A stretch of 64,000 nt of DNA from Cystobasidiomycetes sp. EMM_F5 (Eukaryota): assembly GCA_051047955.1 (NCBI GenBank), contig JBPGPT010000008.1, forward strand, positions 434,001-498,000. Direction: 5' to 3'. The position numbers and the translations under genes are program-made. Within the stretch, counting starts at the first letter, position 1; every line of letters starts with the position of its first letter. The notes beneath the pieces are model-generated. The model ran no database searches, was not told where the DNA came from, and was given only the letters and a program-made list of their open reading frames with translations. Below are positions 6,207 to 57,200 of the stretch, one piece after another.

Positions 6207-9087
6207 TCACCACGTCCGACGACGCTTGCACGTCGGAGCAGACAAATCACACATGCTCTGCATAAACTCATCCACCCTCACATGCTCACTCACATCGCCC
6301 TCCTCGCAGCCATACCCCGAATCATGACCGTACGAGTAGTCCTCGTTGTCGACCACACCGGCCTTGCGCTTGCTCGACAGACAAGGCACGGCAATGTCAA
6401 CCCCGCTCTCCTCATCCCCGTTCGCCATGGCTTCGTCGGTAAGGTACTGGAAAATGTCAATGTCGGCGTCCGTGTTGGCGTCGACATCGGCGGCGCAAGG
6501 TGAGGGCATCGCAGTATCCACCCCTTGATCTGTAGCATTCTCGTCCTCCTCTGTAACGGCAGCGAGGATACTCTGCGACGCAGAGGGATAGTCTGATGGG
6601 CGGAAAGGAGAGACATTCTTGTCCTCCTCTGTGACGGCAGCGAGAATACTCTGCGATGCAGAAGGATACACCGTCTTATTCAAGACACTCGAGACATAGC
6701 CATCCCCGATCTTGTTCATATACCGCGACGGCAGACGCGCAACAGGTAATTGCCGATCGTTCTCCGTCGGCGCAGAGACACGGCCTGGATAGTGTCCCCT
6801 TAGCGGATATGAATACTTGGATGACGAGGTCGCCAATGTTGGGGCACTGCTGCCAGGAGGGCGAAGAAGCGTCTGTGATGGATCAATAGTATATGGGGTA
6901 GCCTTCTTTGCCATTACAAGACGTGCCGACGACTTGGGAAACACATGCACGCCAGGTCTTCTGCGTGCAGGTGTACGAACCATAGGCACTGCACTTGGGA
7001 CAGCAGTGAGTGGAGCGGGAGGAGTCTGCGAAATAGACAAATCATCGGTGTACGCGTACGGCGACGTCGGAGTAAAGGATGACGACGAAAATGAGACTGT
7101 CGATTCTGACTCCGTTGCCTTGTTGGACACACGAACGACTGTCAGCAGAGACGCTTCGACATCAATATCTTGGAGATTGCCATCCTGCGAAAAGATGGTC
7201 GGACTTTCCGACCGATAGCTTGACGTATACGCATATTCTGACTCGAGATGGTTGCGAGCCCACTCTGCTTCGAGTTCATCTGCACTTGGCCTTGGGAACC
7301 GCCTCGCGCACCGCAAGATGGCGTCAAATGCTAGAAGCTTGTAGCGCCGGCTTGTCGCGTAAATTGGATACGTAGGATCAAAGAATTTCTCTCGACGGGG
7401 ATAGACTTTCCGAATTTTATCCTCGAAAATGAGTGTACGATAGCGAACAGAGCCGCAATTGATTGTTGTATGCCGACGCATGAGGTCTGCATGTTCCCGC
7501 CGCGCGTAGCCCGTGGACCGCCTCGATACCCTGTTCGATAACCCTATCATCACCAGACGTCAGCAAGACGTCGAGCAACCAGCTTGAATGCTCAACTCAC
7601 TTGATGCACGAGAGCGCCATATCAAGGTCCTCGAGCTGCTCCTCAACACGATCACTGACCTCGTCAGATAGGATGATACCACGAGCATCAAGGGAAGGAG
7701 GACGAAGGAAATCGTCCAAATCGCCCGTCGACATGTCGTGGAGTATGTCAATCTGCATATCCTCGTCTTCACCTTCATCCTCATCGCAGACCTCGTCCAT
7801 GTCGACGGAACCCTCTCGGCTGGTGTCGGGCGTCACCTCCTGTGAGCTGGGTTGCGAATCGGTCTCATCGGGTGGAGAGTCGACAGACTGTGATTCATTG
7901 ACTGTAGTGTCCACGATCCTCTCGGATTGGACCTCACTAGCAATGCTGAAGGCATCACTTACAGTCACCGCAGGGTTGGATACGAAATCTCCTGCAGAAA
8001 TTGGGACGCGACTCAGGGGCGAGCTCTTGAAGACCTTGAACTTGGGCTTGACAGGAAGAACGTCGTCTTCAGCGGTATTCGATGCTAGACGAGCCTTGTC
8101 AGCATTGCTGATACGAGCTCTAGAGAGTAGCGAGCCAATGGTCGCGGCATCGATACCAACGAAGGGCATGGACCATTCTCCCAGCTGTGGTCGAGACACA
8201 TGTCAGCTGCTGGCTGTGCTTGTAGCGGATAAGAAGATACTCACCTCGGGATCGAGGGTCTTCGACTCGCGGCATATAAGCTCTGCAACCTCCTTTGAGC
8301 AGCCGAGAGCGTCACGAATCATGCTCTCGTGGCGTTCATACATGCCATAGAGGACGGAAGTTGCGGGAAATACATTGGCCGCTTGAAGGTGGGGAACGAC
8401 GACTCGGCCGAAGAGCTGTTGCATCAAGCCGAGGATGCCTTTCTCCAGCCGTATTCCAGGGGTGACGATGCCGTCCCGGGTGTATCGATTGATAGTAGCG
8501 GCAATCCTATACGTAAGGGGCATAGAGTGGAGCGTGAGAAAGTGGAGGTGAGCCTGTATACACGACATACAAGACGGAGAGAAATGAGACGCACTTGGAC
8601 AGGATATAGGGAGGGGCGTGGAGGACGTGAGCTGGTTCCTCGGTGTGCATAACGCGGTGTACAGTAACCTTGCCAGTCGTGTAGTTGAGCGTGATATTGT
8701 CTACGACAAAATGATGCCATATGGCTCTGAGGTGCGCACATTGGTGTGAAAAGGGACGACGAGGGAGGGTACATGCGTCAGTAAGTGTAAGCCGGAGTCA
8801 AAAGCCACCCAGAGTTGGCGAGGCACTATTTCGTACCTGTCGTGGCGAAGGGTAGACCCGTTCCATTTCTGAAGGTGGATCCATTTGTCGAGCACCCTGT
8901 CTTCTCTTCCTGCGTGTTCCACGACACACATATGCGGAACGTCGCCCTTCCTACGAATAATCTGCTTCTCTGCCATCGGAAACTCGATACCTCCTTCCCA
9001 CACCTGGATGTCGTCGCCGTCGACGATGATGTACTTGATGATGGGTCGTCGTAGTGCATTATGAGGTAGGTGAACGAGCTTGTCCAT
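6207..9087 (-). CDS. Large hypothetical (orphan) multi-exon protein with an acidic, Ser-rich C-terminal half and a basic C-terminal tail (CKRRRTW); 5' end uncertain
   Basis: ORFs 8701-9087, 8203-8568, 7597-8199 and 6207-7553 can be joined in frame by GT-AG introns with branch-like sites; internal repeat diverged mainly at synonymous sites; no recognisable domain. Confidence 0.6.
6536..6668. repeat. Two-copy direct repeat (about 55-bp unit, 78-bp period) encoding YPSASQSILAAVTEED[K/E]N
   Basis: Units 6536-6590 and 6614-6668 differ at 5 positions. Confidence 0.92.
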
Positions 9088-13051: not shown

Positions 13052-15235
13052 TTAAAATCCGTCGGTGTCTATGCTGACTCGCAGTCCTCTGGCTCCTTCT
13101 CCAGTCATTCGACGCGCTTCCAGGCGCGTGGGTCGGGAAGGGAATTCAAAACTTGAAAGTGCGCTTGCGCTACTCTGTCTTCGGGCATAGTCCACAGACG
13201 AGTCTCGGGTCGTTGTCACTTGTGGATGAAGATGTGATACAGGCGCAAAAGAAGCCTTTCGCGCAAGTGTCTCTCGTTGAGTGCGCTTCTGTGTTGTATC
13301 TGAGTGCAGCTGCGTCTGCGAGAGTCTGGCAAGGAAAGGGTTGTGGAAAGCCGGAACTGGACTATCTTGGGTCTCTGCAAACAGCTCTTCTACTGTCTTC
13401 GAGGATCCTTCGCACTGTGCAGCATTCGCTGTTTGAATGTCAAGGTGTTCAGTCTGACGCTCCCGCTCATCAGCATCGGAGGAGATTCTCGAGGATTCTG
13501 TGGATGTTGTACTAACGGAAGTCGTGGCCCGGTGTTGAGCTGATGCAGCTTGCAAAGTTGCGCTAGCCCCTGAGAACGGATTCCGAAGTGCGACTTTGCC
13601 TGGGGTCGTCAGAAATATCTCAGCAGGGCGTGGAGAAGGCTCCTGCGAGATCGACAGTCGTTGCCGTATACTGTGCGCGGGAGTGTCAGCATGCGTTGTC
13701 GCGGGCGAGAAATCCTGTAAGGATGTTTGTGCCGATCGGACAGACGGCGAAAGGTGCAAGAAGTTTGGCAACTGCTCCACCTCAGCGATACGTAGTGACG
13801 GTAGTCGCCGCGGTGACGATGCAGCGGTCTCAGTCTCAATTGCCAGTTGTTCTGGATACGCAGTAAGCCTAGAGTGGGCTTGTTCGACAAGGATGCTCTG
13901 CTTGTACAGGCTAGCGTCCGTATGTGACACCTGGCGTGTATGTTGTTTTGAGCGAACAGACTCTCCTGGAGATATGGGAATGCTTGAGACAAACGACGCC
14001 GAAGGCTGGTAGGTCCGTGCCCACGGGTTCACGTAGTCAACGTCAAAGACCCCGGCGGATAGTGGCGCCATGATTGGTACAGGCGAGTTGGAAGTGGAGT
14101 ACGATCTCGTACTGACAGGGGAAGCCTTAGCCGGACCAAAACTCGATGAGAATGCCACACGGTCCGCAGGTGCTGTTTGCGGACGCGCGACTCTGGGCGA
14201 AGTGGCTACATTTCGTGTGACAGAAACGCTCGGTGCCGACGGACGGTGTTTGGACACCGTGCTACGGACAGAAGGAGCCTGACGATTTCCCGATGCTCTG
14301 GTTGACGGACTGGAGCGACCGGAATCCAGGCGAGGAGTTTGCTGGCGGCCCAGAGGTATGATCGGGGATCTTACGGGTGCGGGTACTTGCTTAGATGTGA
14401 CGCCTTGTATCGAAGCAGCAGAATTCTTGCGTGACGCAGAGATCGAACTACGTATCGATCGCACTATAGACGAAAAGGAGGATCGCGGAGTCTTGGCATC
14501 ATTCACCTTACTCAGACTGTCCTTACGACTAGCCTGTGAATCGGTAATGGCTGGTGTGGAAACAGCTACAGCACTTTTGGTCGAGTTATCGGCAAGCACT
14601 ATGTGGTGCACCGGAACAGGTGTTTGTGGCAGCTGAGAACATGATACAAATGTCAGTTGAGAACGATACGACATTTTTACAGGAGAGTGAATCCGCCTTA
14701 CTGGCAACGGCGGTGGGATGAGCACCTCCTTTTTACGACCACCCAGACTTTTCATCATGGAATGTGCTGTTTTCGACAGCCGACGTTGTAAAGGGCCAGG
14801 GGTTGCCATGACCGAAGGAGAAGGAGGTACTGGTGCGCGCCGCGAGGCTACTAGGAAGTTGTCAGGCTCGACTGGAAGGATATGTTGACCAGCGTCCGCG
14901 GAAGGCAGATCATTAGGAGTCAGAGGTCCAAGACTGATTTGAGAATCATCAGAGCCGCGACCGTACTTCAGGTTCTTGTAGGACGGCTGCAATTGTGCGA
15001 TGTGGTCGGTCGTATTCGTCTGAACATTGAGATCGAGACAATCTGGTGTTTGTCGGCCAGCGGTCGAAGTCCGCGAATCAGGCTGAGATGATAGGGTTTT
15101 GCTACTGTGCAAAGCACTGGACACGGCGGAGGTTCTCGTACTGTCCGACCAACGCGATTGTGTGCGAAGTTGGTGGCTAATGGACGACTTTTCCGACAGG
15201 CTCTGTTGGCAGTATGAGTCCCTGGCTGACTGCAA
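13052..15235 (-). CDS. Hypothetical low-complexity Ser/Pro/Arg-rich, probably disordered protein; true start not determined
   Basis: 727-codon open frame, probable in-frame intron near 14634-14701, no recognisable domain. Confidence 0.55.
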   Translation of the reverse strand: MQSARDSYCQQSLSEKSSISHQLRTQSRWSDSTRTSAVSSALHSSKTLSSQPDSRTSTAGRQTPDCLDLNVQTNTTDHIAQLQPSYKNLKYGRGSDDSQISLGPLTPNDLPSADAGQHILPVEPDNFLVASRRAPVPPSPSVMATPGPLQRRLSKTAHSMMKSLGGRKKEVLIPPPLPVRRIHSPVKMSYRSQLTFVSCSQLPQTPVPVHHIVLADNSTKSAVAVSTPAITDSQASRKDSLSKVNDAKTPRSSFSSIVRSIRSSISASRKNSAASIQGVTSKQVPAPVRSPIIPLGRQQTPRLDSGRSSPSTRASGNRQAPSVRSTVSKHRPSAPSVSVTRNVATSPRVARPQTAPADRVAFSSSFGPAKASPVSTRSYSTSNSPVPIMAPLSAGVFDVDYVNPWARTYQPSASFVSSIPISPGESVRSKQHTRQVSHTDASLYKQSILVEQAHSRLTAYPEQLAIETETAASSPRRLPSLRIAEVEQLPNFLHLSPSVRSAQTSLQDFSPATTHADTPAHSIRQRLSISQEPSPRPAEIFLTTPGKVALRNPFSGASATLQAASAQHRATTSVSTTSTESSRISSDADERERQTEHLDIQTANAAQCEGSSKTVEELFAETQDSPVPAFHNPFLARLSQTQLHSDTTQKRTQRETLARKASFAPVSHLHPQVTTTRDSSVDYARRQSSASALSSFEFPSRPTRLEARRMTGEGARGLRVSIDTDGF

Positions 15236-16167
15236 CGGACATACGCGTAAGACGCCGGAACGCTAACGAAGATCAGTGCACGCGCTGATGTATACGATGA
15301 CAATGCCTGTACGCACTTCGTCCCAAAGTCCCCTTTCGTAAGTGCGGCCTTGAAAGCTGATACCGAGGCCCGACATCGTTTCGGATGCGCTGGATGTACC
15401 AGATACGACGATGTAGGATGGTGTCGGGACAGATGATATTGCCCGAGAAGAGGCTTGGGAGTGGAGACGCAGAGTGTCGCCGATAATGAAGCTGAGAAAG
15501 GCGGTCGCAAAGGACAGCCGCTACAGCTTCTTGCGGGAAAGGGAGAGAAGCTGAGAACAGTGCAGTTGTGCCAGCTAGGTCGCCCAGCAGACCGAAATCA
15601 TGAGGCTTTATCAGGGTCAGTCCGCTTCTCCGGGATCCGACCTCAGGTATCTCAGAGTTCCTTGCGAGACGGATGGTGCGACGGCAGACGGGAGTACCAC
15701 ATTACTGGAATTGATTGGCTGCGAAAGTCTTAGCGTTTTAGCGGACCTTTCCAGGTCATCACTGGCACCCGCCGGAAAAGGCAGCAGGTGTTGATTTGAA
15801 CCCTCAATTAAGCCAGCAGGCGGGCATTTGGGGCGCTGGTTTCACAGTCAGTAAGCACGCCGCCGCTGACCCTGGGCTAGCTGTCCATTATCCATATGGT
15901 CTGGTCGCATCTGGTCTCGCAGCATCATGGCAAAAGCTGTCGCAAATTTCGGCACAACTCGAGTGAAATGCTGAGGTTTTGAGCATACGGCACATGCGCA
16001 TGGTGTGCTCTGTTGCAGAAGTATCCGTAGCCCGACATGGCTCGGGTGCTTGTTGAAGGTCCGGAGTTGAGACGGAACAGAAAACGGCCAATCTTTTGGA
16101 ATACAACGACAAAATTTGCCAGACAGGCAGACGCTCAAATGCCTTCCACTGCACTCTCACTTCACTC

Positions 16168-25176: not shown

Positions 25177-26747
25177 TCAGCACGAAAGTACTGCTAACGT
25201 TGACAAATCCTCGCTCACAGGAAGTATGCTCCACTGATATGGAAGCACCAGACCTCGCTGCCCGCTGCGATACTGCTCGACCGATCTGACAGCGTCTTCG
25301 ACATATCTTCTGCTAGAAAACTTCTCCACAAAGTACTTCTGGGCAGCTTTGGCTCGTTGCAAACGACCCGCAGGGTTTCTGTAAAGCCAATGATCGATCG
25401 TATGCTGAATGCGCTCGAGCGTATCGTTATGGCTGATAGGTACCACGAACTCCCGAAAAGCAGTCTGCCGATCGCTTGGGAGCGTCCCTATCATCATACA
25501 GCCGGCCGCAGCGGCTTCGCCATACTTCTGTAGCGAGTACTGCCATCTTGAGCCAGTGACTAGACAGATCTTGCTGTTCCCCAATTCAGTCGCAAAGTTC
25601 TCAAACTGCTCTTCCAACGTGTCGCTTGTGACACCGAGGCTGATACGCTGAGATGCCGCATATGCATCTGGATAGCCGGGATGCGGCCGGACACGACCTG
25701 CTCATAGGCCTGTATCCATCAGTATGCTACGGCTTCATGTCATATCTCGGACGTACCTGTGAGTCTCCCACTCGAAATTAGTTCGTGAAGTCGGGACCGG
25801 AAGGGATAGAAGGTAGCATCAACACTTCCAGCTAGAAGCACATCGTTTGAACGGGGTTTGTCGATATCGAAGACGAAACGTTCATCAATGAAGTGGGGCT
25901 GATGAACGAGTAGAGCATCGTCCATAAAGGCCTGATGCTCGTACAGCTCATTTGCATAGGACGCAAGAATGACGGAGATGTTTGCAGTCTTGTAGAGGAC
26001 GTGTCTGCGTCCATCTCTCATCTCGTGCGGGCGATCCAAGAATACGACTCCTTCTCGGCTCAATTCTGCCCAGTCTAGAAACGATTGCGTCGAGTTGATG
26101 TTGAGGTTCTTTTCTTGATCGTAATTCCCTGTCGCGATACAGATGTCAGAAAGGCTGCCTCATAACGACATTGCTCTTATGCACAATATGGTAGAACGCT
26201 GTCGAAATATGTTACGCTGCCAAATTGCCTCAGTATGTTGTCCTTCAGGCTTGACGATGAATTATAGCCGTCGAAGCCCGGTCCCCACAAGACGGCTTCT
26301 TCGATCAGATCCGAAGCCGCTGAAAAGGCAGTATGAGACCGCAGGAACCATCTGCCATTGTAATGAAAGGTGAGGTACAGATGTGCCTCAGCAATCGTGC
26401 GCTTGCCCTACATGGAACACTACTTGCGACTTGGCTCACCTGTCCATGAGGCTCTCCGAAGTCGTTCTATCTATCAAATGCAGTATCCTCATTCTAGGAG
26501 AATGAACGGGCCATGACGGTAGTCTCGCTGATGCTGAAGAATAGAGCGTGGACAGTGGCAGTCTCCCGGGAGACATCAGCACGCAATTGAACAGAATGAC
26601 CATGCCGAATAGGCTCAAGCCGAGGAAGCGGGATGGTAGCCAATTGTCGAACATTGAGGCGGTCACGGACCAAGTTGAGGAGCGTTCGAGACAACGATAC
26701 GAGTGGGAGCCCGCTCGAGATCTCTCATCATTGTTTCTTTTGTCCAT
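25177..26747 (-). CDS. Type II membrane GT-B glycosyltransferase, CgeB/Glyco_trans_1_2-like, copy 1 (3 introns)
   Basis: TM FLGLSLFGMVILFNCVLM; MRILHLID; WGPGF; LLAGSVDATFYPFRSRL; HPGYP; SKICLVTGSRWQYSLQKYGEAAAAGCMMIG. Confidence 0.7.
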
Positions 26748-27424
26748 ACTGCAGATCGTCGTAGATATGTCGTTGACGAGCGGCCGGGATCCGTCCACGA
26801 GCCCTGTCGAGCCTGAGCACGGGCGGCGAGTTGTTTACAACCAGCCATGCGAATTTGGAGGCTGTTGAGAGCCTCAGGATGAGATTGTCATCATACTTAT
26901 CTGATAGCCAAGATCCGGCTGGAAAATGCAGCGTATTCTTGGTTGTCAATTTCCTCAGGCTGCAAAGGGTCAGTTTTGGGGGATAAAAGGTGGGTAAATG
27001 AAACGAGCTACTTCTGCGGTCTGGTGCATAGGATACGAGTACGAGAGTAGCTGAGCCTCAGTATTCAGAGATATGTATAGAGCGATAGTGCCCAAGCCAG
27101 GCTGACGATAATGTACGCGTAAAAGACAGCCTGAGCGGGCAACACGACAGTCGAGCGGGCAATGGCAGCTTGTAAGGATTGTGCTGACAGGACCTTGTGT
27201 AACGCATGCACATTGTTGACTACCTGATGACCCAAAGAATCATCGAAAAGCCTGCAACATTTCCAATCGCGACGGGAATCGCCTCGGCTAATTTTGTGCA
27301 AACCTTCAATAACAACCCAGCCTCGTCTCTATATGCTACAACAACAGACTTCTTGCAAGCGGGTTCAATTTAACCGCTGCGAACTGAGGTACTCACTCTA
27401 GCGTCTCTTCGGCGAATGGGATAT

Positions 27425-29013
27425 TCAACCATCAAAAGGCAGCGGAACCTGCAAGTGAAACATTACGTCAGCTGAAAGCGAAGAATGTGGCACATCATAA
27501 CCTACGGGCAGCGCCTTCCACTCGTAGGGCAGTACGAGTCCCCTCTGACCATTGCGGAACTGGCCAATCCATCTGACCACATCCTCCGCATACTTCCTGC
27601 TTGAGAAATTCTCCACAAAGTACTTTTGTGCGGCCTTTGCACGCTTTATACGCCCCTTTGGATCGACGTGCAGCCAGTGATTGATGGTATCGCGAATGTG
27701 CAGCTCCGGATCATTCTGTTTGAGTGGGACGATGAGATCTCGCAGTACGTTCTGGCGATCACTTGGAACGGTGCCCATCATCATACATCCGGCTGCTGCC
27801 GCCTCGCCGTACTTTTGCACAGAGTACTGCCATCTTGACCCAGTCACAAAGCATATCTTGCTGTCGCCCAGCTCATTGGCAAAGTCTTGTGCCTGGTGAG
27901 CCAGACTATCGTTGTTGATGCCACGCTGTGCTCGTTCTGCTTCGGTGAATGTATCGGGATACCCAGGGTGAGCACGGACGCGGCCTGTAGAATGTCATCA
28001 GTAGTATGCTGACGATTGCGAGAACAGTAATGAACTGACCGGTAATCTTCTTGTCTCTGATGAGCTCATTTAGTCGATGTCGCAGGGGATAAAAGTCGAG
28101 ATTTAGGCCGCCCGCGAGCAGAGCATCGTTTGAGCGTGTTTTCTCTGGATCGTGTATAAAGCTGTCATCGATGAAGTGAGGTTGATGAACGAGCAGCGCG
28201 TGCTTGCCAAATTTCTGATAGTCGTACAGCTCGTTCGGGTATGGCGCAAGTACCAAGGAAACGTTGGAGTGCTCATAGAAGAAGCGCCTTCTCTCATCCC
28301 GCATCTCGTGGGGCCTGTCAATCATGACGACACCCTCCCGACTGAGCTCGGCCCACTCGAGGAAGCGATGCGTCGAATTCGCCTTGAGAAAAATCTCTTG
28401 GTCGTTGTTGACTGAGGTTTGGCTAGCGTCAGCTTAATCTCGTGGGCGTGGCTCGGTTCGGACGTACAATATGTCAGAACAGCATCAAAATACCTCGCAT
28501 CGCCGTACACATTTTTTATATTTTGTTTCAAACTCGACGAGTTTTCATACTTCGGAAAGCCTGGACCCCACATGACGGCTTCTTCGACTAGGTCAGTTGC
28601 CGCTTGAAATGCGCCATGTGAGCGCAGAAACCATCTACAGTTGGGTAAAGTCAATCATTGATTCGTGCTTTGGCGATGTCTCGGGTTTTTCTGACTCACC
28701 TATCCATCAGACTTTCCGATGTTGGCTTATCTATCAAGTGCAGCATTCGTATCTTGGGCGACTTTGTATGTGATGGCGGACGTGACGCAAATTGCGAGAT
28801 TGCCTTTGGCAATATCCCCGTCACGGCTGCACATTGCTGCGAGAGGGGCGGCAGGGCGGGTGACAAGAAGGCAATGTTGATGAGGGTGAATACTGTGCAT
28901 GTAAGGAACGCTTGAGACCGGAGTCGACGCCAGAGGTTCTGTGCAGACTGAGAAGGGCGCCGTGGGGATTTGTCGGTGTACGCCGGCAACAGGGACGTCT
29001 TGCTCGAGCTCAT
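27425..29013 (-). CDS. Type II membrane GT-B glycosyltransferase, CgeB/Glyco_trans_1_2-like, copy 2 (3 introns)
   Basis: TM AFLTCTVFTLINIAFL; IRMLHLID; WGPGF; LLAGGLNLDFYPLRHRL; HPGYP; SKICFVTGSRWQYSVQKYGEAAAAGCMMMG; same intron positions as copy 1. Confidence 0.7.
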
Positions 29014-29815: not shown

Positions 29816-30525
29816 TCACCACTGGATATTAGGGTCCTTTAGACTGTCTCGGATCTTCGACACCCGCTGTTGCAACTGTTGACGACGCAGACGAGCGCGC
29901 ATGCTCGGCAGCATAGCGGCGCAGGTAATCCTAGTGACTGACATTCGTCCAGCGCCGCATCTACAATTTGCGACATTGTAGGTTTTGCCCGCTGTGACCG
30001 TTGAGTAAGATATAATGGAATCGCCTAGTGAAGGCGAGCATGATGCCAGTAATCCGTTGATGGGTCTGACCAGCTCTGTTCTGCGGGTCACATTACACAC
30101 TCGGTGAACATAGTTCGAAACTTCTGGAGCGGACGCCTGTAACAGGGCCCTTACTTGTAGTAGATTACTGGGAACGTGGTGGTGCTGCTAGTAGCCGCGT
30201 TGCCGGGATAATCTTGGAGAAGAAGGCAAAAGGCACTGTCTAGGGAAAAGAGTGCTCCTATGCAGGCTGCATAATTACGAAGGTCAGGGCTGAAGCACTT
30301 ATATAAGCCTCGGACAATCTAGGGTAACTACTGACCAACGCCGGCTGTGGTGCACGCGAGTCGACACGCACTAGGGGTTGTCGCAGTTGTGCCGCTGCCC
30401 AATGTCGTATCGTCTGGATGGGTGATATACTGTCCTGATGGGAAATTGAATGCGTCGTATACTTGCGCCTTGACGGATGTGCAGATAATCAGAGCGCTGA
30501 GCGCAATCGCTCGCCAGCAAAACAT
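29816..30525 (-). CDS. Small secreted cysteine-rich protein with PAN/apple-like motif, paralog A
   Basis: Signal peptide MFCWRAIALSALIICTSVKA|Q; introns 30335-30267 and 30154-30081 give ...SACRLACTTAGVACIGALFSLDSAFCLL...NCRCGAGRMSVTRITCAAMLPSMRARLRR...DPNIQW*. Confidence 0.8.
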
Positions 30526-31720
30526 TATCAGGAAAGGAGGAAGCAGCTTCAGCAGCAGTTTTGGACAGCAAAACTCGAAAAGTTGGAGTATTGTCAACAG
30601 AGGCCGTAAGTACGATGTCAACGGACACACGCTACTAGCGCAAACGTTTCGATGCTGCGTGCAGCCTTGTCGCGGGAAGCGGGAAGGTTTTGTAGGGCGT
30701 CCCGGAAGCTGATAATGATCTGAGACAGGGTCACCCAGATGTCGACATCCCACCGGCTGCACGGTGCCGGCTGACAGCTGTAACTGAACGCGCCGGCCTT
30801 TTCGGACTGTCAAGGTGCACCGTACAGCTCAAGTCCATATCGTTCTGATCGCTTGACGAGCTTGTAGAGCGTGCCTATCCGGTCCGAATCCAACAACGGG
30901 TGTTTTTACAGACAGTACTGTTGCTTTGCCGGCCCACTGACATCCGGATGCTATCTTGTAGCAAGCGAATCGACCGGCGACTTTCAGCTGGCAGGGATGA
31001 TCTGTGCTTCGGCAGAGAGTAAGAGTCGGCTGCGCCATTGTCGAAGTGGGCGATAGCTTAGTCCTACAAGTCGATAAGAGCCGAGTGCGCCGCCAGTCAT
31101 GTTGACGCGTTGTTGTGCTACAATAGTGTCGAACAGTGCTCGCGTCGCTGCCATCGAGTCTGTTTCGAGTCGGTCTAGCCTGGATATCGCATGCTCCCCC
31201 GACACTGATTGATGAAGCTGGTAGTACCGAATCGACACTGACAACGACGACGTGGGCTGGCCATTTGTAAGTATCCTTGCGCACATCAGCTCGCGTTGCC
31301 TATCTGTCTTTCGGCCATGAGGCATTGTCGATATCAGCTGTTTTGTGTCATTTCTGCGCACGTAAAAGGCGATTCAGAAACCGCCAGCTGGTCGAGTGTG
31401 CCGGTGCGTGCTGTAGAGCCATGCAGAGTGTCCTAAGCGTGTCCAGATATTCATGACTCCTAATACTTTCCTAGATTACTTGATTTCCGACTGGATCCCT
31501 CTGCCTCTTTGCGACATGATATGGCCATGAATGTTGGCAGAGGACACCTCCGATACTCCTGCGAATGGATCCAGTCTGCAGCTAGGACATCGCGGCGAGT
31601 CTCGAATATCGCATTGGTCAACGTCCAACCTGGGTCGCAGTCTTGTACAAATCAGTGACGCAGCCCGTCCAAGTCTCGACAATCACAACTGCCAGCTGAA
31701 GGTCCATATATCACCACACC

Positions 31721-34700
31721 ATGCGGGTCATACGAGCGTACGATGGCAGGCTGCTCCCCATTGCCATCGACGACTTTCCCCCGGATCCGAGTCTCGAGAC
31801 GGTGCTCACCATGGTCGCCGAGTGCAGCGATATCCCAGTGACGGCGCTCATCGTGATGCACCCTTCCGGGAGGCAGATGGACCGCGACTCGCTGAGGATA
31901 CTCATGGGCAGGCCAGCTGGGTCAAAGCAGGATACGGCAGAACAGGCGACCGTGTTTGCATTCGACCGCGAACTGATTGAGGCTGACCTGGCTGGGCCAG
32001 AGGGGATAGAAGTTATGCGCCAGATGGACAAAAACACCGTGCAGATGGTCGCAGATGCGCCAGGTCATCGTGGGTCGTCTAGTCTTGCAGAATAAGGTGC
32101 CGCTGACGATGTTTTGCCACTGATTTCGCAGCAAACGACCAGCTCGCTCTCACCGTCGACCTGATACAGAGCATCCGCGAACAGCGTAATGCTCTCTCTG
32201 CAGCTCTCAACAACCTAGAACGACACCGAGGAGGGCGGCAAGAAGCAATCAAAGCATACACACACTTCGCTGCTCCACAACTGAAGCAATTCAAGGACGT
32301 CCTAGCCGTCTACCCTGCAGCGATATCAATCGCTTCACAGATCAATGTCATTCCGAAACTGCAGGGCTCTTCCAGTTCCTCAAGCTCATCGGACGCCAAG
32401 TCAGCCCGAGTCAGTAGGGACCGCCCGCTGTCAGACTATGTCAATCAGGAGCGCATGGAGAATGTCCGCAAAAGCTGCCAGCGCGTATTGGACGATCTCG
32501 AAGCAAAAGATGCCGAAATGCAGTCTCTTGTTCAAGGCATTGCTGCAGAGACTGCCAGCCTCAAACAAGGTTTCAGTGAATACAAGTCAGTCGGGCCGTG
32601 CAGACGCGTCAAATAATACTCTTCGAGCTGATGAGGGTATATTCTACAGTTCTGACGATTTGGACGTGGCAGAAACCGATGCACGTGAAGCCTACACCAA
32701 ACTCCTGCACATGGTCGAGCAAGCCGAGCCATCTCAAGCTCACCCCGACCGCAATCCCGCTGTACGTGAACTGTTCGAGGAGGTCGAGGATCGCTTGGAG
32801 TATCTCGTAAAGCGCAAGGTGAGCTATCCTGACCTTTAGGTGTGAACGCATGCACTGAACTGCCTGTGTATGCAAAGCATATTGACACGCGACGTTTGTT
32901 GGTGTCTCTGCAAAGTATAGCACAACTTCAGTCACAGATCGCACAGACTCCGAAAATGACACAGGCTTTCAACGATGACCTCCGGTAGATGTTTGTGCTG
33001 CTGCCGAGGCGAACGTGCTGCTGAAACGTCAGGATATCGCAGTACCAAATGTGATGGTTTCAAACACCTCACAAGGATACGGAATTTTGCATCGTCTTAT
33101 GTCGCTACTTTAGCTGAAGCGATACGCCGACGGCTCTATCGTAAGTCGACGTATGCTTCGCGAATTTCATTTAGCTTAAGCAATCTTGTGCAGTGAACAA
33201 TATTCTGGCCTGCTCGGCAGCGCAGGCTGCGACATTCGATAAATTGGGTGCCGAGGAGAAGAAGCGTCGTGGCATCTTCCAGGCGGAATGGGCTGGAACA
33301 CTACCTTGGGCTATCCCTGGCTTCGAACAGCCTGTCGCATCCCTGGACATTCATTTAACAGGCACACGCGACTCCGCAACTGATAATGACGAAGACACGA
33401 ACGGCAACCTTAGCGTCGCTGATCTCGACAGTACGTACCATACCCTGCATATGCACGCTGGCGCTGACCCGTCAATTTTAGACCTGATTGAAGCTCTGAC
33501 TAACGTGTCGACGTCTCTTAAACCAGAAGATTATCCCGCGGGAGAGGTGCCGCACCCGGTTGACGACGCCCTCTCCCTTGCCATCAAGTACAAGAAGCAG
33601 ATCGAAGATCTTCAGCACGAATTTAATGCGCTACGAGCGAGGATTACCAGCCCGGAAGCAAGCGTGTCATCTGCTGATTCAGCTTCTAAACCATCTGCCG
33701 AGCTGCGTGATGCAGTCACGAAGGACAAGTATACACAGCTTCAAGCTGAATTGGCCGACGCTCGCGGCTCTATTGACCAACAAGCTGCAGAACACGATGC
33801 TCGCGTTGCAGCACTGCGGGAAGAAGTCGCGCATGCGGTAGCAAAGCAGACGAGCGCTGAAGAAGCTGTCTTGCTATCCGAGAACACCATCGAATCACTG
33901 AAACGCACAGCGGCCGCTGCCAGGCAGGCTGAGCAAGACAGCAATGCGGAAGCTAAGAGATTAAGGCAAGATCTTATCGCTGAACAAGCCCAGAGCACTC
34001 GAAAAATGGCCGATCAAGCAGCACTTGTGAAGATTCTGGAGCTCGAGTTGACCGAGCTCAAATCTAGACACGCCGTGATTGCGCGAGAATTGACTAATTC
34101 TGAGGAGCGATGCGAAGTCCTTCAAGAACGGTCTCGCGACCTACTCAACAACTTACGGCAGAAGGAGCAGACGATCAAAGACATGACGACAGAACGTGCT
34201 GCGATAGCAGCTGAACGCGCTGCGGATTTGGTAGCGCAGCGGGAGCGTTCCGTGCAGCACGAGCAAGCTATATCCGCTGCGTCAAACGATAAAGCCGCGC
34301 TGCACGAGCTACAAATCAGCCTGTCAACAAAGGAGAGCGAAGCAGCTGAATTGCAAGTGATGTGCAATGAGCGCAGTAAAGCTCTATCGCAAGCTCTGAG
34401 CCAGGCGACCACAATCTCGAGCGATACGCGCACTCTCCTGAATCATCTTCGCCTATTCTTTGATAGCCATATCGTCCCACTTACGCATTTCGTGAATGAA
34501 CCTACTCTAGTGGCTAAGTCTGCCGCTCCGAAAGAGATGCCTGTCATTGTCTCTCCTGTTCCGATGTTCGATGCAGCTTCCATGTCGGCAGCCATCGAAA
34601 GCCTGGCGACAATGGATTGTAGCGTTTTCGAGCACACCAAGCAGAAGATACAAGCGTCGTCACTGCAGACGCGCAAGTGGCAAAAGGAGTGCAAGAGATA

Positions 34701-36086
34701 CAAGGAGAGGACGGAGAGGGCAGTCGCTGCGTCTCGCGATAAGATTGCTTTCGGCAGGTGTGTCAACTTACGCTGAAGAACGAAGCCCGTTTGCTTAGGC
34801 AATTCGAAACGCAGCTTCGCCGTAGGTGATGTCGCTCTCTTCCTACCAACGCGAAATGCAGCTACGCAGCTTTTTGCGGCTTTCAACTATGTACGTGTCC
34901 TGGTCGCCGGTTGCAGCCCGTCTAAAATATGAATATTCGTGCAGGGAAAGCCCAACTACTTTTTGACGCCTACTGGAATACTGGTTGACCACGTCAAAAC
35001 GCGCGATTGTAAGGCATTGTTTATTGTTTATTGATAAGGCGTCCCTCAATCTCTGGCTGACTTGCCCAATCGACAGATATCATCGCACGCATCTCGAGCA
35101 TCAAGGAAGCAACAGTGACCTTGGACGACCCCGTTGGCAATCCATACTCGTTAGCACTTGGCAGCAGATACTTTCAGCTGGAAGCAGAACCATGGCGGCG
35201 GGAGAAAGACCGAGAGAAGCTCGTCAGCATGAGCAAGGAAGCTGCTGCAACCAGGGCAGGGGCCAGACGCGCTTCCGCATCTGAAGCAGTGCCGCAGTCG
35301 CAGGAGCCTTGCAATGGCGTACCGGAGCGAAGTGACACTTTGACTGCCAGCAACTTGCCGGGCCACTCGCCAGACAGCGCTTCCCCACAACGAGTCCAAG
35401 AGGCCTTTCCCCCAGATATCATCCCGCAAACTGTCGAAGGCCCGTCAAGTCCACCTCCCTTTGTTCGACGTACTGTCAGCGAGTCTCCAGCAACGGCTTT
35501 TTCGGCTTTGAGCGCACAAAGACCGGCGGTCCTCGACGTTATTGTAGAGCCAGAACCGCATCTGGAATCCACTATCCTTCGTGGTACTAGCGGAGCTGCG
35601 GTGTCTAGTCCGCCGGACCTTGTAGCCGCGACCTCTCTACCAGACTTGCAGCCGTCATCAGTGGGGAGCGTTGCAGCTGCGTTTCTGCCGATGGCCTCGC
35701 GAGACAGTCATCGACATTCTGTAAACCTATCCGCAACCCGACCACCGATGGGTACGAGTATGCCTCGGTCAGCCTCGTCAAACGAGTCGCACGGCCCTTC
35801 GTCCTGGAAGATGATGGCCGGGAGTCAGCTAATGGGCAGCATGACCACAAAGGCGCGACCGGTTTGTGCTACGACTGAGGCTTTGAGCGATGACGGAAGC
35901 AGCTGGATGGACTTGCGACGTACTCACACTGTCGGTCGGTACGTCAGTCGGTCGACTGGAGCAAGACTGGGTTCTACTCCAGACGGCGCATCCAGAATGC
36001 CTGCTAGATCTGCCTCAAATGCAGCGGACATCCTTCGGTCTTTTTCCACAAACAGCAAGAACATCCCAAACACGAGTGAGCATTGA
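31721..36086 (+). CDS. ATG11: Autophagy-related protein 11 (selective autophagy scaffold)
   Basis: Long coiled coil then KWQKECK...ASRDKIAF|SFAVGDVALFLPTRN...AAFN...IIARI...NPYSLALGSRYFQLEAEPW (ATG11 C-terminal claw domain). Confidence 0.92.
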
Positions 36087-36457
36087 CATTACGATCATAC
36101 GGCTGTATCGAAAAGAGCTTCTATGTACTTTTGGCTTGATGACACTCCCCAGACCTAGCCCACATGTAGCCAGATTCCCTCAAACCAGATAACAGACTTA
36201 CACGTTGTCGCGCACAGATTGATTGCAATGCTGGGCGATATTTCCCTGCTCTTTCTGCGCATATTATCGTTCTTTCTTAACCCCGGTCTTGCATGATTCG
36301 GCTTGTCAATTTCTTGACAGTTGCGAACCGATTTGGCCAGGAAGCACTTCAAAGCACACAACGAAATTGCTGCCCACGATCTGGGATTGCCGAATATCAA
36401 CCCTGCCAGGCTGGCTCACTTCACCTTGGTCCACATAGCAGCTGGAAGGCAGCAGAC

Positions 36458-37993
36458 ATGACAATTCTAGGCAACATCTCGGATGCTCTTCGGGGCCAGC
36501 CGACGTCGCACAAGATCAAGCGAGGTGGGCTTGTATTGCTGTGCGTCTTTGCCGGACTCCTCTGATGCCAGCTTCCCGTCTTTCAGAGTACATATTCAGC
36601 GACCATCATTCGGATATTTTAGGAACTGGTGGATACTCCCGTACGCAGCATGAGCGAACGCTCGGTAGGAAGGCATTGCGACTGACTGAGTTACCCGTAA
36701 TCTTCCACTGTGCGCTCGGCAGGCGTCGAAAGAGTCAAGAGCGTCAGAATGGACAAATATGTCGCAATGAAGATAGTCAACAAGACTGTCGTTTCAAACA
36801 GAGAAAACTACCTGAGTCTACTACAACGCGTCAAGGAAATGTACGCCGACCTGCAAACGGACGATATCAGTATGTATTTCCTTGTCGCAATACGCGTTCG
36901 CCGAGTCCCGGGGGGAAGAAGCATGGCTGATTTGGTCTATTGCGTGCAGTAAGAGGATACGAATGGTTTGAATCTATAGATCGCTACTACATCGTGTTTG
37001 AGCTCGCAGCTGGAGGAGACATGTTTGACCGGATACTTCGTTAGTCGCCCCAGATTGCGGCTATCCTGCGACTCCTGACGGCATCACCGCACTAGACTAC
37101 GGCAGATACAGCGAGAAGGTAGCAAAAGGTGTAATGCGGCGGATATTGGTAAGTCCGGCTCTTTCCGTTACGACAACTGGCTCACTATCCGAACTACTTT
37201 GTCGCAGACCGCTCTTCAATTCGTGCACAATTATGGGCTTATACACCGGGACATCAAGCCGGAAAATTTCTTTTATCGTGATCCGGAAGACCCGCTCAAC
37301 TTCGGAATGGCGGATTTCGGTCTGGCAATAGTCTGTTCTGAGAAAAACGAGTCAGACACGGAGCGGTATTATGAGATTGCGGGCACACCGGGCTATGCTG
37401 CACCAGAGATATACAGGAGGACAGGGTACGGCAAGAAGAGTGATTTATTTGGAGTCGGAGTCTTGGGTCAGTACCGATGACAGACGAAACTACGGCGCTG
37501 ATGAGCGCTACGCAAAACACAGGGTATATTGCTTTATCCTCTTGGTCACCGTGGAATTCTAGCGAACCAAAGCAGTTGATGATTGAAACTATGACACTGC
37601 CAGTCAAGTACTATCCGTCGCACTGGCAAGGAGTCAGCGAACAAGGTGAGTCTAGAAACCTTTTTTCTTTCATCACCAAAAGCCTCTTGGTCTGACTACA
37701 TCTGTTCCTTGTTGGTTGCAGCGAAAGACTTCATTACCGGACTAGTTCAGAAAGACCCAGAGCGACGCTTTACGATCAAGCAAGCATTGGCGCATGAGTG
37801 GCTTACTACAACGGCCGGTGAAGAAGCAGACGCTGCTCTACCAGTCCCGCAGAACCTGACTCGGCACAAAACGGCGAAAGCCGAGACGCTATACGAGGGC
37901 TGCGAGATTGCCCGAGCGCTCACCAAGCATGCTGCCGACGAAAATCTTCATGCGCTTCCGGAAGCAGTACCGCCGTCGCGCAAAATTCTGTAG
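36458..37993 (+). CDS. Ser/Thr protein kinase, CAMK-like, many small exons
   Basis: LGTGGYS, VAMKIV, FELAAGGDMFDRIL, IHRDIKPENF, ADFGLA, AGTPGYAAPE, DLFGVG, RFTIKQALAHEW. Confidence 0.9.
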
Positions 37994-38155
37994 ATCCTAC
38001 TATGCCGTATATAATATTTCAGGCACTGCATCCGCCTTATTGCACTGTGCTGGTTCAATGTACTAAACTGTAAGTATACCTGCATAAATTGTGCATATTT
38101 CTTGTGTTGTAGCGCTTAGAGGTCAGCGTCCCCATTCATTGAAGCTGTGTCCGTA

Positions 38156-39222
38156 CTACGGAGCTTGTAGAGCCGCAAAGTCAGAGTCTTGCCAGTCAAC
38201 AAATTCGCCGCTTCTGGCTTTGGGTGCATGCAGTGTGAGAGCCGCCAGCAGATAGCCTGGCTTGCGTGCTGGCAGGAGCTTCCCATCCGCGTGAAGATTC
38301 GTGAATTTGGCGCTGCAATACGATGTCAGCGTCCTGCTTCTGCAGCGACTGTAGATCAGTCACGTACGCGTCTGCAGGGGACATATATTGGGCCGCTGTG
38401 TGGAGTCTGATCAGACAGTCGCATTGCCGTGTCAACTTGTGACATCGCCTACCCGACGACCGCAAGAGTTCCTGCATTCCAGTATCGACTACTCCAGGCC
38501 TGACTGCGAGAAAAGTGATATCTTTCTCCTCGCTTGCTGCCGTCCGACAGAGGCTGTTTAGAGCGGCTCTGTGGAACACAGCGCCATCAGGCTGATATGT
38601 AATTAGGTAAATGAGTCATTCGGACTGACTTTGAGGCGTTGTACGCTGACCATGCAGCGTAGTTGCCGACAGCTGCTCCGGATGAGGTAAAGATGACTTT
38701 TCCTGATGTTTGTCTTAGATGCGGGATTGACAGTTTGAGCGCCGTTACGAGCGAGAAGAAGTTGACGTCAAAGTGAGCTTTGTAGGCGTTTACATCAGCG
38801 TCAACGATGCGGGAGACGGGCTCGAGTACGCCTCTTTGATGGACGGACGAATGCTCTCGTCAGATCATACTGCGTCTGAAGCGATACAACATGCTCACGC
38901 ATTGAGGAGCAGTCCATCGAGCTTGCCAAACTTGCTGACGGCCGCAGCGATTGCATTCTGCACATTGTGCTATTTCAGAAACTTTGCGCGGCTACTTGAA
39001 AGCTGGCACTCCCACCTGTTGGTCTTTTTCGTTGGCAACGTCCCCCTCAACGACTTCGAGCTTGGAGCTGTGTTGCTTTTGCAAGAACTGGAGCTCCTCA
39101 GGACACGACCGACTGAGCGCCGTGACGTTGCACTTGAATGTCCCCAGCAGGGCCTTGACTGCTTCAAGGCCAATGCCTTTCGACGCGCCCGTAACAAGTA
39201 TGGACTTTGCTAAATCCGACAT
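38156..39222 (-). CDS. Short-chain dehydrogenase/reductase (sepiapterin-reductase / yeast IRC24-like)
   Basis: ILVTGASKGIG, LDGLLLN, FDVNFFSLV, FTSSGAA, WSAYNASK, AVRPGVVDTGMQ, GEFVDW. Confidence 0.88.
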
Positions 39223-39770
39223 TGTGACAGACACAGCATGAGGCAGTCACAAGTCAAGCAAGAGCAGGCCAATGTTTGGATGGCCGATGTGCCTGGATGC
39301 TCCAGGAGGACACCGACACGAGCATCTTGAATCTTTGACCAAGTACGCAAGTCGGTAAAGCGGACTGAATTTAACATCCTACGGCTGCAGGCTGGCACTC
39401 CTGGCACGGATGAATGCATCGCTGGGCGATACATTATTGAGTCGTGTGAAGCGACAAAGACCCGCAGGTCTGGGTACCGGGACATGAGGCAGCCGTCTCT
39501 GATGTTTCATACAGATCCGCGACACCTGATCGCACTCGTTGCCGCCCGTTGCCGGATCTCCGTATTATTGACAGACCTTGCTTGTTGACGGTTTTCTCCG
39601 CATTCCAGCCCGACAGCCCTGGCATATTGAGCATGCCTTGACCTGTGATTACCGGCATTTATTTACGGACTCTCGCACAGAGAAAAGTAGTGTGCTCACA
39701 TTTTGGCGGCTCATCTTTCTTCTGCTCCTCCTACTAATCTCGACCCACTACAGCTTCCCAAACATTCACC

Positions 39771-40477
39771 ATGTACAGCTGGCTAGCCGTCCTTAGTTTC
39801 GCCCACCTTGCATTCACTGGCGTTCAGGGTCAGGAATACACTGATGTGACCACTCCGAGTGGTGGATCCATCACAATTGCCAATTATCAACAGATAAATA
39901 CGGTTCGTCTGGCTGCAAATATCGCTGGGTGCAAGGCTGCATGCTCCGACCCAGACCTCAGTGAGTGTATACCACACTACTACAGCTGGGCGTCTATCAG
40001 TGTACTGAGGTACTTTATTATAACCAGACTGCATATTCACCACCTTTATTCAAGGCGGCTGCTACTTTTTCACTGACGGAGCGACATCGAGCTCGTTCGA
40101 TTCCAGATATCAGTTCACCTTCAAGTATGTGGTACAGATGATTGAGCGATACAACAATCTGTTTGCTGAAACTGGTATTGAACTCGATTTATGTCTTCCC
40201 ATCCATCCACAGGCTGGACGATGACCCTAGGACTCTTAACGGGCGTCAAGGAGCATGCTCGGCAGCCGCTGGAGACAGATGGACGACTGCACTTGTTCCC
40301 GGCACCACCAACAACTATTTAGTCACCTGTTCATGCGGGACCGGTCGATCTCCAGTCACTACCAATGCCTGTGCTGCAATGCTGCCCTCGATGCGCGCTC
40401 GCCTACGTCAGCGTGCCATGATTGAGCCAGCCAAGAGAAACGTTGACGAGCTGCACGATGCGACAGTGCAGTGGTAA
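39771..40477 (+). CDS. Small secreted cysteine-rich protein with PAN/apple-like motif, paralog B
   Basis: Signal peptide MYSWLAVLSFAHLAFTGVQG|Q; introns 39961-40027 and 40125-40212 give ...AGCKAACSDPDLNCIFTTFIQGGCYFF...TCSCGTGRSPVTTNACAAMLPSMRARLRQ...DATVQW*. Confidence 0.8.
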
Positions 40478-54200: not shown

Positions 54201-57200
54201 TCACCCGTCAGACGGTGATCGCACGTTCATCGTGAAAGAAGGGAGTAATCCCCGATGTCTAAGCTTGTCAATCCGCTCTTGCTCGTCTTCCGAGTCTCGT
54301 GTTGACAAAACGCCGTCTGTCTGGACAGGATGTCCGCCCTCGAGTCGGGCAGTTGCGTGCGCCCTCGCAGAAGCAATTGCAGACGGACTTGGGTCTCGTG
54401 AGGAGGCTTCCGAGTTGCTTACCACGTTGGACACCTGTTGTTGACGATGTCGCTGACGGAGACCGTCTGCTGGGTGCTCCTCCTTCTTGCTGTTGCCGTC
54501 AAAGTGGACACTCCTCGAGGTCGATGGGGAGGTGCTGCGAGAGGACAGCTGCGAGCTCATTCGAGATCCGGCGTCAGAGTGGTCATGATCTGGAAGAAGC
54601 ACCCGCTCCAGGGGAGGCGTCGACACGGGTGATGCCGCCGAAGGACTAGTAGCAACTTCTTGGCGCAACGCACTGTGCTTCTCTGGGTGTGTCAAGATAC
54701 TATTCGCAGCCTTTAGACCATGACCAGTCATAATCGGCACCGGAGCCGAATGCCGCATCTGACGAGGCCGTACCTCATCTGGTACAGCCAAGGTTTCTTG
54801 ATGATTCGACTTTTCGGCCGTGATGGTAGCATCAGAGGCGGTGGGTAACATCGAAGGGGCAGATATGCTAGCTACTTGCGAGGAAGCATTCGACTTGATG
54901 GAAGCGTTCGACGATCTCCGTAGAAAGAACGGCTTGAAGACTCCGCTGTTGACTCTGGGTACCAGTCCACCAGTGCTTGCATGGCTAGGATTGCCAGACG
55001 CAGAAGTGAGTTCAGAGCCATTTTGTGCTTGTGCTTCAGAAGCTATTCGAGCACGCTCAAGCCCTTCGTAACGTTTAGCCTTGGTGATTGACAGCTTTGT
55101 CGGCGTTGTACTCCTAAACGGCGTCGCACCACCGCCGCCAATCTCAGCCGACGGGAAGGGAAGAGAGTGATGCTTTCCAGTCACTGGCTCGGCGCCCGCT
55201 GGTATCTGAATGAGAACGGAATGGTCGTCCTCTTCTCCTTTTCGATGGTGATGATGATGATAACCTGCGTGAGGTGGTTTATTCGGATCATGATGTCGTG
55301 CAGAATCCATACGCTTCTTCGCACCGCGAGCTGTAACCAAGCGCCTGCCGTGCGCGTCTTTCGATTCCGCCAACAGACTGCCATCCAGCTCGCTGACCTT
55401 GTCTTCAAAAATGGCATCAATGAGGTCTTTGGCATCGTAGTCGGTACGATTCACACCACTCAGAGACAAGGACGCGTCAAGACGGTCCTTGTTTAAACTT
55501 CCCACGTCACCGAGACCTGTATGGGGCGACGGTGCAAAGCTACTTCTCGTGACATCGATGTCGATACCAGAACTTGCACTAGAGTGTGGTCCACGCGAGT
55601 TTCGTTTATTCGTCAGTACTGCAATGGGTTGACTATCAGAGAAGGGGAGGCAGGAATGTCGCCATACGAATATACTTACCAGAAGTCGATGACGCATTAT
55701 TGTGAAAAGTGAGACTCTTGCCGCTCGACTGCGCATGAGGTGACTTTTGAGTAGACTTCTTCCCCTTGACATCCAGTGTACCAGTCTTCAGCTGCGGTCT
55801 AACATTCGCACTGATGATTCAGCCGTATACGCGACATCCATGACACCCATACTCACGCTCTGAAGACCCTCTCTCCGCCTATCCACTCCATTCTTATTGC
55901 TATGCGCAAAAGAGCATTCGTTCTGCCGTTCTGCAACAGGTATCTGCGGTTGATCCACGTGTCTTTATTATTGTTTGATCTGCCAGACGCGACAAACTCG
56001 CTCAAATCTAGGCACAATTCGCCGAGATGCATCTCTTCATGTAGCTCCTTCTTGTTGCGCTCTAGCTTCATTTCTGTGTGAGATGACCCTGATGCAATTG
56101 ATGCAGAAGACGAATGCAAAAGCGATACCATTGACGAACTTGGTGTATCTCCTTTCGCCTTCAATGTCGATGCCAAGTCCCGGGTGGAAGCTGAAGGCGT
56201 TGTAACTCGCTGTGCTATAGCTCCTCTGGCATGCGGTAACGGAGTCACGCGGACTTTGTGCCGGATCGACAAACGGACTGGACATGCACTGAGTGCGCCC
56301 GTCTCTTTGCTGATGGGTATAGCTACCGCACAGAGTATGTGCTGATCAAAATGACAGGCATGATTCTTGAGCTCGAGGCGGCTCGTCGAGCCTTTCGGGT
56401 CTGTCAGGCGTATGGGGAGATTGGGTGGCATCTGTGGCTGATCTGGGGTACTCGGACTGTCGCGCGCGTGCAGGGTAGACCATCGCGTGAGACCTGTCCC
56501 TCCTGGACTGTTTCCTTCTGTTGCACTGTATGGATTGCCTTCGTAGCTGTCGCCCCGAGAATGGGCAGACATGCCAGACCGCGAGGTGTTGAGGGACGGT
56601 CGAAGAGAGGCAGACGTGGGCGACTCTGTGCGCCTGTACGAGCTGGAGGGAGAGAAGGACGGTGGAGGGGAGTAGACTGGGGCAGGTCGTGGGGATGTGC
56701 CTCTTGCGCTGGGGTCGGTAGAGTGGCTGGGGCTATCTCTATCGGTCAGAGTTCGCACGCTTCCGGTCAAGGAGGAGCCTGGCGTGGGTTGACTGCCTGT
56801 GAGGGAGTGCAACGGACGCAGCGGTGTCGGGGTCGTTCCAGCTCTGGCAGAGTATTCTGGGAGGGTGGAGTGGGAGGAAGTCGGAGAAGCTGTGGAAGCG
56901 TCGTTTGGGCCAGTCGAAGACGACGGGCTGAACGGGGCGGACGTTGTGCCCGAGCGTATCCTCTTTCCGACCCCACCTACCCCCTTGACCATGTCGTGCT
57001 TCATGTCCTTCATCGCATGACGTGTTTCGCGGTACATTCTCCTCGCCATCCCGCCTGGCCCGCTACCGAGTCCATCGTCTGGCTGGTCACTCCCCGCTCC
57101 GTCACCACTCTGCCAGAGGTATCCCTCGGTCCCCCTGACTGCCCGCTCGACTGCCTTTTCGCTCTGCGAGTGACCGAGGTGCATGTGGTTCTTGAAGCTC

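Follow-up and report, generated by a model that had tools for sequence, protein, structure and literature searches.

Two paralogous genes for probably secreted, cysteine-rich proteins with a basic QW-ended tail in a Cystobasidiomycetes genome

Two diverged genes in a basidiomycete genome share a frame of cysteines, a stretch of 13 identical residues and a C-terminal QW. What kind of protein do they encode, and what might their common tail be for? Both lie in the window analysed here, a 64,000-nucleotide stretch of a contig of Cystobasidiomycetes sp. EMM_F5. In our best reading, the two genes, A and B, are anciently duplicated members of a small family whose products are secreted precursors in a basidiomycete yeast.

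Genes A and B and their relatives

Gene A runs from 30525 to 29816 on the minus strand and gene B from 39771 to 40477 on the plus strand, at the coordinates given in a preliminary description of the locus. Its claim of two related genes with three exons each is borne out by open-frame models at both loci, with splicing as predicted (window positions):

29816..30525, minus: gene A, three exons by predicted splicing, predicted precursor of 188 residues
30336..30525, minus: A exon 1, putative signal region (codons 1-20), Gln21 and the first half of the PAN-like module with C-x3-C
30267..30335, minus: A intron 1 (predicted), 69 nt, phase 1, containing in-frame stops
30155..30266, minus: A exon 2, Cys 3 and Cys 4 of the PAN-like module
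30081..30154, minus: A intron 2 (predicted), 74 nt, phase 2; an alternative acceptor 15 nt downstream also preserves the frame
29816..30080, minus: A exon 3, putative four-cysteine beta-hairpin module, basic tail and QW-stop
29885..29923, minus: 13-residue block of A, beginning at the last cysteine (C154)
29882..29887, minus: dibasic RR of A (166-167), candidate Kex2 site at +13 from the last cysteine
39771..40477, plus: gene B, three exons by predicted splicing, predicted precursor of 183 residues
39771..39960, plus: B exon 1, putative signal region, Gln21 and C-x3-C
39961..40027, plus: B intron 1 (predicted), 67 nt, phase 1
40028..40124, plus: B exon 2 (predicted, limits less certain)
40125..40212, plus: B intron 2 (predicted), 88 nt, phase 2
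40213..40477, plus: B exon 3, putative beta-hairpin module (modelled strands 22-55 of the exon product), modelled helix (58-79) and QW-stop
40370..40408, plus: 13-residue block of B, beginning at the last cysteine (C149)
40403..40438, plus: candidate Kex2 sites of B, LxxR ending at 163 (+14 from the last cysteine) and KR at 170-171

Splice models were enumerated for each gene as open frames from ATG to stop with two GT-AG introns. In the chosen models, intron 1 follows nucleotide 190 (phase 1, codon 64) in both A and B, and intron 2 lies in phase 2 in both, at codon 101 in A and codon 96 in B; the two phases recur in the third paralog, C, described below, and the positions and phases claimed earlier for the pair hold for the predicted splicing. 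When the open-frame models were ordered by their similarity to the other paralogs, the chosen one came first of 206 for A, 12th of 226 for B and second of 371 for C. Because of its lower rank in B, the limits of B exon 2 are less certain; the six best-ranked B models among those listed have weaker donor sites than the chosen one. For C, the top-ranked model differs from the chosen one by a single codon and has the better donor.

The predicted products of A and B are identical at 59 of 182 aligned residues and follow one order: a hydrophobic N-terminus, Gln21, C-x3-C-x6-C-x9/11-C, C...CxCG-x-GR-x7-C, the 13-residue block, and D-x-x-[IV]-Q-W-stop. The best 11-residue Kyte-Doolittle mean at the N-terminus is 2.5 in A and 2.05 in B, and the hydropathy maximum within the first 25 residues ranges from 2.05 to 2.85 across A, B and C, suggesting that all three are probably secreted proteins with an N-terminal signal peptide. 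The mature part contains eight cysteines in each of A and B; the earlier label of eight-cysteine proteins is accurate for that part, A having two further cysteines in its signal region.

The genome was searched over 18.3 Mb in 253 contigs, and the family counts are lower bounds. Searches with exon 3 recovered A and B, together with one more gene on a different contig and a fourth, weak match, whereas genome searches with exon 1 and exon 2 and a profile search of the 200 kb around the known loci yielded no further member:

1480..2136 of L003 (contig G000:C197), minus: paralog C, third intact gene, with a very short predicted intron 2 of 42 nt
1490..1770 of L004 (contig G000:C90), plus: decayed copy of an exon 3 of the B type, interrupted by a stop and indels

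The family thus comprises at least three intact genes and one decayed exon. C has in common with A and B the three exons, the intron phases, a Gln after the signal region, eight mature cysteines and the QW-stop; the shared exon structure and cysteine frame make the three a paralogous family of small, probably secreted cysteine-rich proteins, as had been proposed for the pair. The next gene but one from C resembles a GH18 chitinase. No upstream exons were recognisable at the decayed copy, which is flanked by convergent genes that, by eye, resemble a ubiquitin-conjugating enzyme and a proteasome alpha subunit.

Outside this genome, seven of 1.84 billion representative proteins passed E 0.001, and two of these are family members: P0001, which is C's own exon 3, and P0006, a 97-residue frame that does not occur in this genome and represents a remote homolog from another organism. 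Three others proved on inspection to be unrelated repetitive proteins, and the remaining two are very long and repetitive. In leave-one-out profiles, each of the four exon-3 sequences was recognised by the other three at 38.8-89.2 bits, a score reached by 0 of 500 shuffles each time. A, B, C and P0006 have in common C-S-x3-G-D, C-x-C-G-x2-R, a basic stretch past the last cysteine and the QW-stop; the QW end noted earlier for the pair therefore extends to all four members, including the one from another organism.

Wider searches added nothing to this set. The 7,997 candidates scored, 171-2,000 residues long, included no full-length annotated homolog, which is weak evidence, and the 1,764 candidates of similar length contained just P0001 and P0006. 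The metagenome and viral contigs searched gave no confirmed relative, the ESM Atlas gave no usable hit for P0006 and, for A exon 1, returned solely hypothetical clusters scoring below 0.9, no Pfam family matched any exon product, and no PDB sequence hit to the family fell below E 0.6. In the literature searched, none of three family motifs and no description of the family was found. We conclude that the family is real, small, lineage-restricted and apparently undescribed, and that it is built from familiar parts.

Between A and B lie an ATG11-like gene and a kinase gene, and the surroundings consist of housekeeping genes, with a Prp28 exon in the neighbourhood; A and B therefore do not belong to an effector cluster. 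Among named sequences, the Prp28 exon is matched best by Cystobasidium minutum (59% over 95% of the query), the next reaching 48% over 98%, and some metagenomic matches are closer; we take this to indicate a yeast of the Cystobasidiomycetes. The preliminary reading of a diversifying effector family is unsupported: synonymous sites between the paralogs are saturated (pS 0.75-0.78), and only three intact genes were found.

Elsewhere on the minus strand of the window are two tandem, similar glycosyltransferase-like genes (25177-28433), one of them with a weak Glyco_trans_1_2 hit, and two adjacent RSN1/OSCA-type channel genes (61-1539 and 4348-5736). Long frames that match no Pfam family lie at 6207-7559 (450 codons), 13052-15262 (736 codons) and 54201-55787 (528 codons), also on the minus strand.

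The two cysteine modules

PAN modules have an alpha/beta fold in which C1 pairs with C4 and C2 with C3. In module 1, the cysteines are spaced C-x3-C-x4/6-C-x9/11-C in all three paralogs, in keeping with PAN spacing. Four conserved cysteines are given as the PAN hallmark in the excerpted text of PMC3338822, which also describes fungal PAN proteins that can escape Pfam, among them Ss-Sl2 of Sclerotinia, with no Pfam match. By pattern, module 1 fits a PAN assignment. Of the earlier claim that the first motif is PAN/apple-like, the four-cysteine pattern stands, and the fold is a reading of that pattern.

Pfam returned no PAN match on the separate exons or, at these loci, in a genome search with PAN_4, and intron 1 splits the motif between Cys 2 and Cys 3. 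Folded alone, exon 1 gave a low-confidence model (mean pLDDT 53.6) with a helix across the C-x3-C segment. When the three spliced modules were combined into a profile, it aligned in register with one of the genome's PAN_4-like domains, with 8 of 1,000 shuffles scoring as well; against a second PAN-like control (L053), 188 of 1,000 shuffles did as well, which is chance level. An outside PAN_4 reference set was sought, and none of 401 bacterial genomes held a match over the cut-off; ten weak bacterial PAN_4 hits turned out to be an unrelated CxxC protein, and plasmid and PDB searches with a PAN-like domain returned noise. A WSC domain was also considered and rejected, as the cysteine order is unlike the WSC consensus and there was no Pfam hit. 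Elsewhere in the genome (L052, G000:C180), a glycosyltransferase-like frame ends in a PAN_4-like domain just below the Pfam cut-off.

The closest parallel is Ss-Sl2, which, as far as the excerpts of PMC3338822 describe it, likewise combines a signal peptide and a four-cysteine PAN-type pattern with the lack of a Pfam match. It has two PAN modules, whereas the proteins described here would have one, PAN-like by pattern, followed by a different four-cysteine module and a basic tail.

EGF-like domains have six cysteines in three disulphides; module 2 has four, and in this respect departs from them. A structure search with the model of exon 3 gave 22 weak matches, most of them EGF-like domains. 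The best reached Z 2.6, within the noise range, with an rmsd of 3.3 over 48 residues, and none of 48,161 chains reached Z >= 5; Foldseek with the same model found nothing under E 1.4. These matches hint weakly that module 2 may form an EGF-like beta-hairpin.

The basic tail and its candidate Kex2-type site

Kex2 cuts after KR, RR or LxxR (PMC8528282, in excerpt), and the preliminary equation of R-x-R with a kexin site was accordingly mis-stated. The broader proposal of a kexin-type processing site in the tail fares better: all four members have a KR, RR or LxxR, at which cleavage may occur, ending +13 (A), +14 (B), +13 (C) and +14 (P0006) from the last cysteine. B lacks RR at the aligned place and has LxxR there, with KR later. 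Neither A nor B contains KR or RR before residue 166; the site common to the members is some 20 residues short of the C-terminus. Across 13 long frames of the window, a site at that distance occurs at 183 of 6,397 positions (2.9%), a background that overstates the case because A, B, C and P0006 are not independent of one another and the +13/+14 distance was picked with their sequences already in view; some such site falls within the next 34 residues at 2,312 of the 6,397 positions (36%). The position of the site therefore supports processing and does not prove it.

The 18-21 residues past the site are variable except for the last few, and 5 of 22 tail codons are identical between A and B. Such variation is more in line with a propeptide anchored by a single Trp than with a ligand for a receptor. 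In the model of exon 3 (mean pLDDT 67, pTM 0.45), strands span residues 22-55 and a helix that starts in the 13-residue block spans 58-79, the tail forming one continuous helix. A prediction of self-association for the exon-3 product scored 0.00 against a mark of 0.32, which gives no answer either way.

The account we favour, to which we would give about an even chance, is that of a secreted PAN-like and EGF-like surface-binding protein whose C-terminal propeptide is removed by Kex2. The three exons would be spliced as the open frames and shared intron phases suggest, and a 20-residue signal peptide, judged by hydropathy, would be removed ahead of Gln21. The core of about 130 residues would fold as two four-cysteine modules, one PAN-like by its pattern and one an EGF-like beta-hairpin by a weak model. 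A Kex2-type protease of the late Golgi would then cut 13-14 residues past the last cysteine. The last 18-21 residues, ending in QW, would be a C-terminal propeptide that may aid folding or sorting, or may mask the binding face until export. PAN modules elsewhere suggest that the core would act as an extracellular glycan- or protein-binding protein of the surface or matrix.

The main rival supposes that the tail stays uncut, as a basic helix that ties the protein to a membrane or to acidic polysaccharide of the cell wall or matrix, the terminal Trp stacking or touching the membrane. It holds this place because of a contrast in charge: the tails are net positive (A +6, B +2, C +4, P0006 +3), whereas the cores of A, B and C are neutral or -2. 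The single continuous helix of the model agrees with it. Acidic secreted polysaccharides have been predicted (PMC8355462, in excerpt) for lichen-associated basidiomycete yeasts, whose lifestyle this host may not share. Against an uncut anchor stand the near-equal distance of the Kex2-type site from the last cysteine in all four tails and the charge of just +2 in B, and we consider it rather unlikely.

Relation to other precursors, and the 13-residue block

How does the family with its putative propeptide relate to known secreted proteins? The PriA/CPL1/Cfl1 proteins of basidiomycetes (Pfam PF21671, InterPro IPR038955; in Cryptococcus Cfl1, Cpl1 and Dha1/2) are defined by a C-terminal CPL1-like (SIGC) domain, according to the parts available of PMC12864254, PMC3926872, PMC8654403 and bioRxiv 2021.09.02.458767. 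Of 18 candidates that PF21671 picked up in the genome, 15 matched, eight of them over the cut-off and none at A, B or C, nor was there any trace of a CPL1 domain downstream of the three stops. Because their loci lack a CPL1 match, A, B and C are not PriA/CPL1 members, and the family stands outside the group that the preliminary description had named as grounds for giving up its claim. Both have an N-terminal signal peptide (here judged by hydropathy); the difference lies at the other end, where a short helix ending in QW replaces the CPL1/SIGC domain. The design is reminiscent of PriA/CPL1/Cfl1 precursors in its front half but lacks the C-terminal domain that defines them.

Could it have arisen from such a precursor by loss of the C-terminal domain, the 13-residue block being a leftover inter-domain linker? 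The genome has the eight CPL1 matches over the cut-off, and at four of these eight loci a spacer of small residues follows the last cysteine and leads to a dibasic site, at about +8 to +12. One such gene begins with a PAN_4-like domain (E 0.006), and another has CxC-x11-C right before the linker. A profile of the last module and linker, built from four sequences, did not rank the CPL1 linkers above control loci, and the likeness is therefore a resemblance and not demonstrated descent. The absence of any domain trace past the stops also speaks against this origin, as does the intron in the PAN-like domain of L053, which sits elsewhere; we think it unlikely.

Two CPL1-domain genes, L053/L040 and L041, are adjacent on G000:C112 (about 992-997 kb), the first being one that begins with a PAN_4-like domain. 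Long cysteine-repeat arrays occur in the CPL1-type genes L037 (start of G000:C35), L046 (end of C197) and L039 (C112); the L046 array runs past its contig end and may continue into the contig of L037. The Ustilago 'Cpl1' was dismissed as a relative, being apparently a cerato-platanin-like protein that bears the same name.

With K2PP effectors and Kex2-processed repeat proteins (PMC8528282, in excerpt), the family shares a KR/RR/LxxR site in a small secreted protein, found in all four members. K2PP effectors have an N-terminal pro-domain, whereas the candidate pro-piece here is C-terminal, and A, B, C and P0006 have neither repeats nor a known plant host. More speculatively, and in our view improbably, Kex2 might free a QW-ended C-terminal peptide from a binding protein of PAN-like type. 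This peptide would either guard the binding site like a safety catch or serve as a secreted signal, and the whole would be a class-restricted type of precursor. If true, this C-terminal design would mirror that of effectors whose pro-domain is N-terminal, and none like it was found in the literature searched.

A version with two products would make the released 18-21-residue peptide itself a cell-cell signal, like the shed Cfl1 of Cryptococcus. The QW end common to all four members, the other organism included, is compatible with this; fungal peptides that Kex2 sets free form a known class (PMC8528282), and released Cfl1 is a paracrine signal (PMC3926872), both as given in the excerpted texts. 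Each precursor would yield a single peptide, with no repeats, and little is conserved beyond the last two or three residues, which makes such a signal distinctly unlikely.

What of the 13-residue block itself? It is identical in A and B, confirming the perfect conservation reported for that pair. When the columns of their alignment were shuffled 100,000 times, 3 shuffles contained a run of 13 identities. A degenerate DNA pattern for the block occurs at two places in the window against 0.05 expected, and an exact PSMRAR-type DNA pattern has 17 matches genome-wide, with family context at A and B alone. The preliminary description had called the block invariant, naming non-conservation in further members as decisive against it; C keeps 5 of the 13 residues and P0006 just PS-x-R and RR, with a longer spacer, and the claim has to be given up beyond the pair. 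A match in the window near 49,900 that looks like the block was an off-frame chance hit, and an RxLR motif was discarded, since the sequence reads R-A-R-L-R and not R-x-L-R.

The block has 11 degenerate codons, of which 7 differ synonymously between the two genes (pS 0.61), one difference being a switch of serine codon family, as do 24 of 43 elsewhere; because the block differs as the rest of the gene does, it is held at the protein level and not copied by DNA conversion. That the block is functionless, a product of gene conversion or chance, is very improbable and already largely refuted: its region is the sole DNA-level match between A and B (57 nt at 77%) and paralog C does without it, but these codon differences, the rarity of such a run in shuffles and its decay in the non-coding relic copy all contradict that view. 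The best reading is that the 13-mer combines a helix start with the context of a protease site, kept in A and B by protein-level selection, the family-wide constraint being looser.

Small orphan families of secreted cysteine-rich proteins are common in fungi, and the family by itself is therefore unremarkable. The secretomes of Cystobasidiomycetes are little studied, so that it makes a usable marker there. Should the tail prove to be a propeptide that Kex2 removes from the C-terminus, the N-terminal pro-domains known from fungal secreted proteins would gain a C-terminal counterpart, and there would be a hint of how one design of module and linker is reused in basidiomycete yeasts, with the CPL1 domain or without it.
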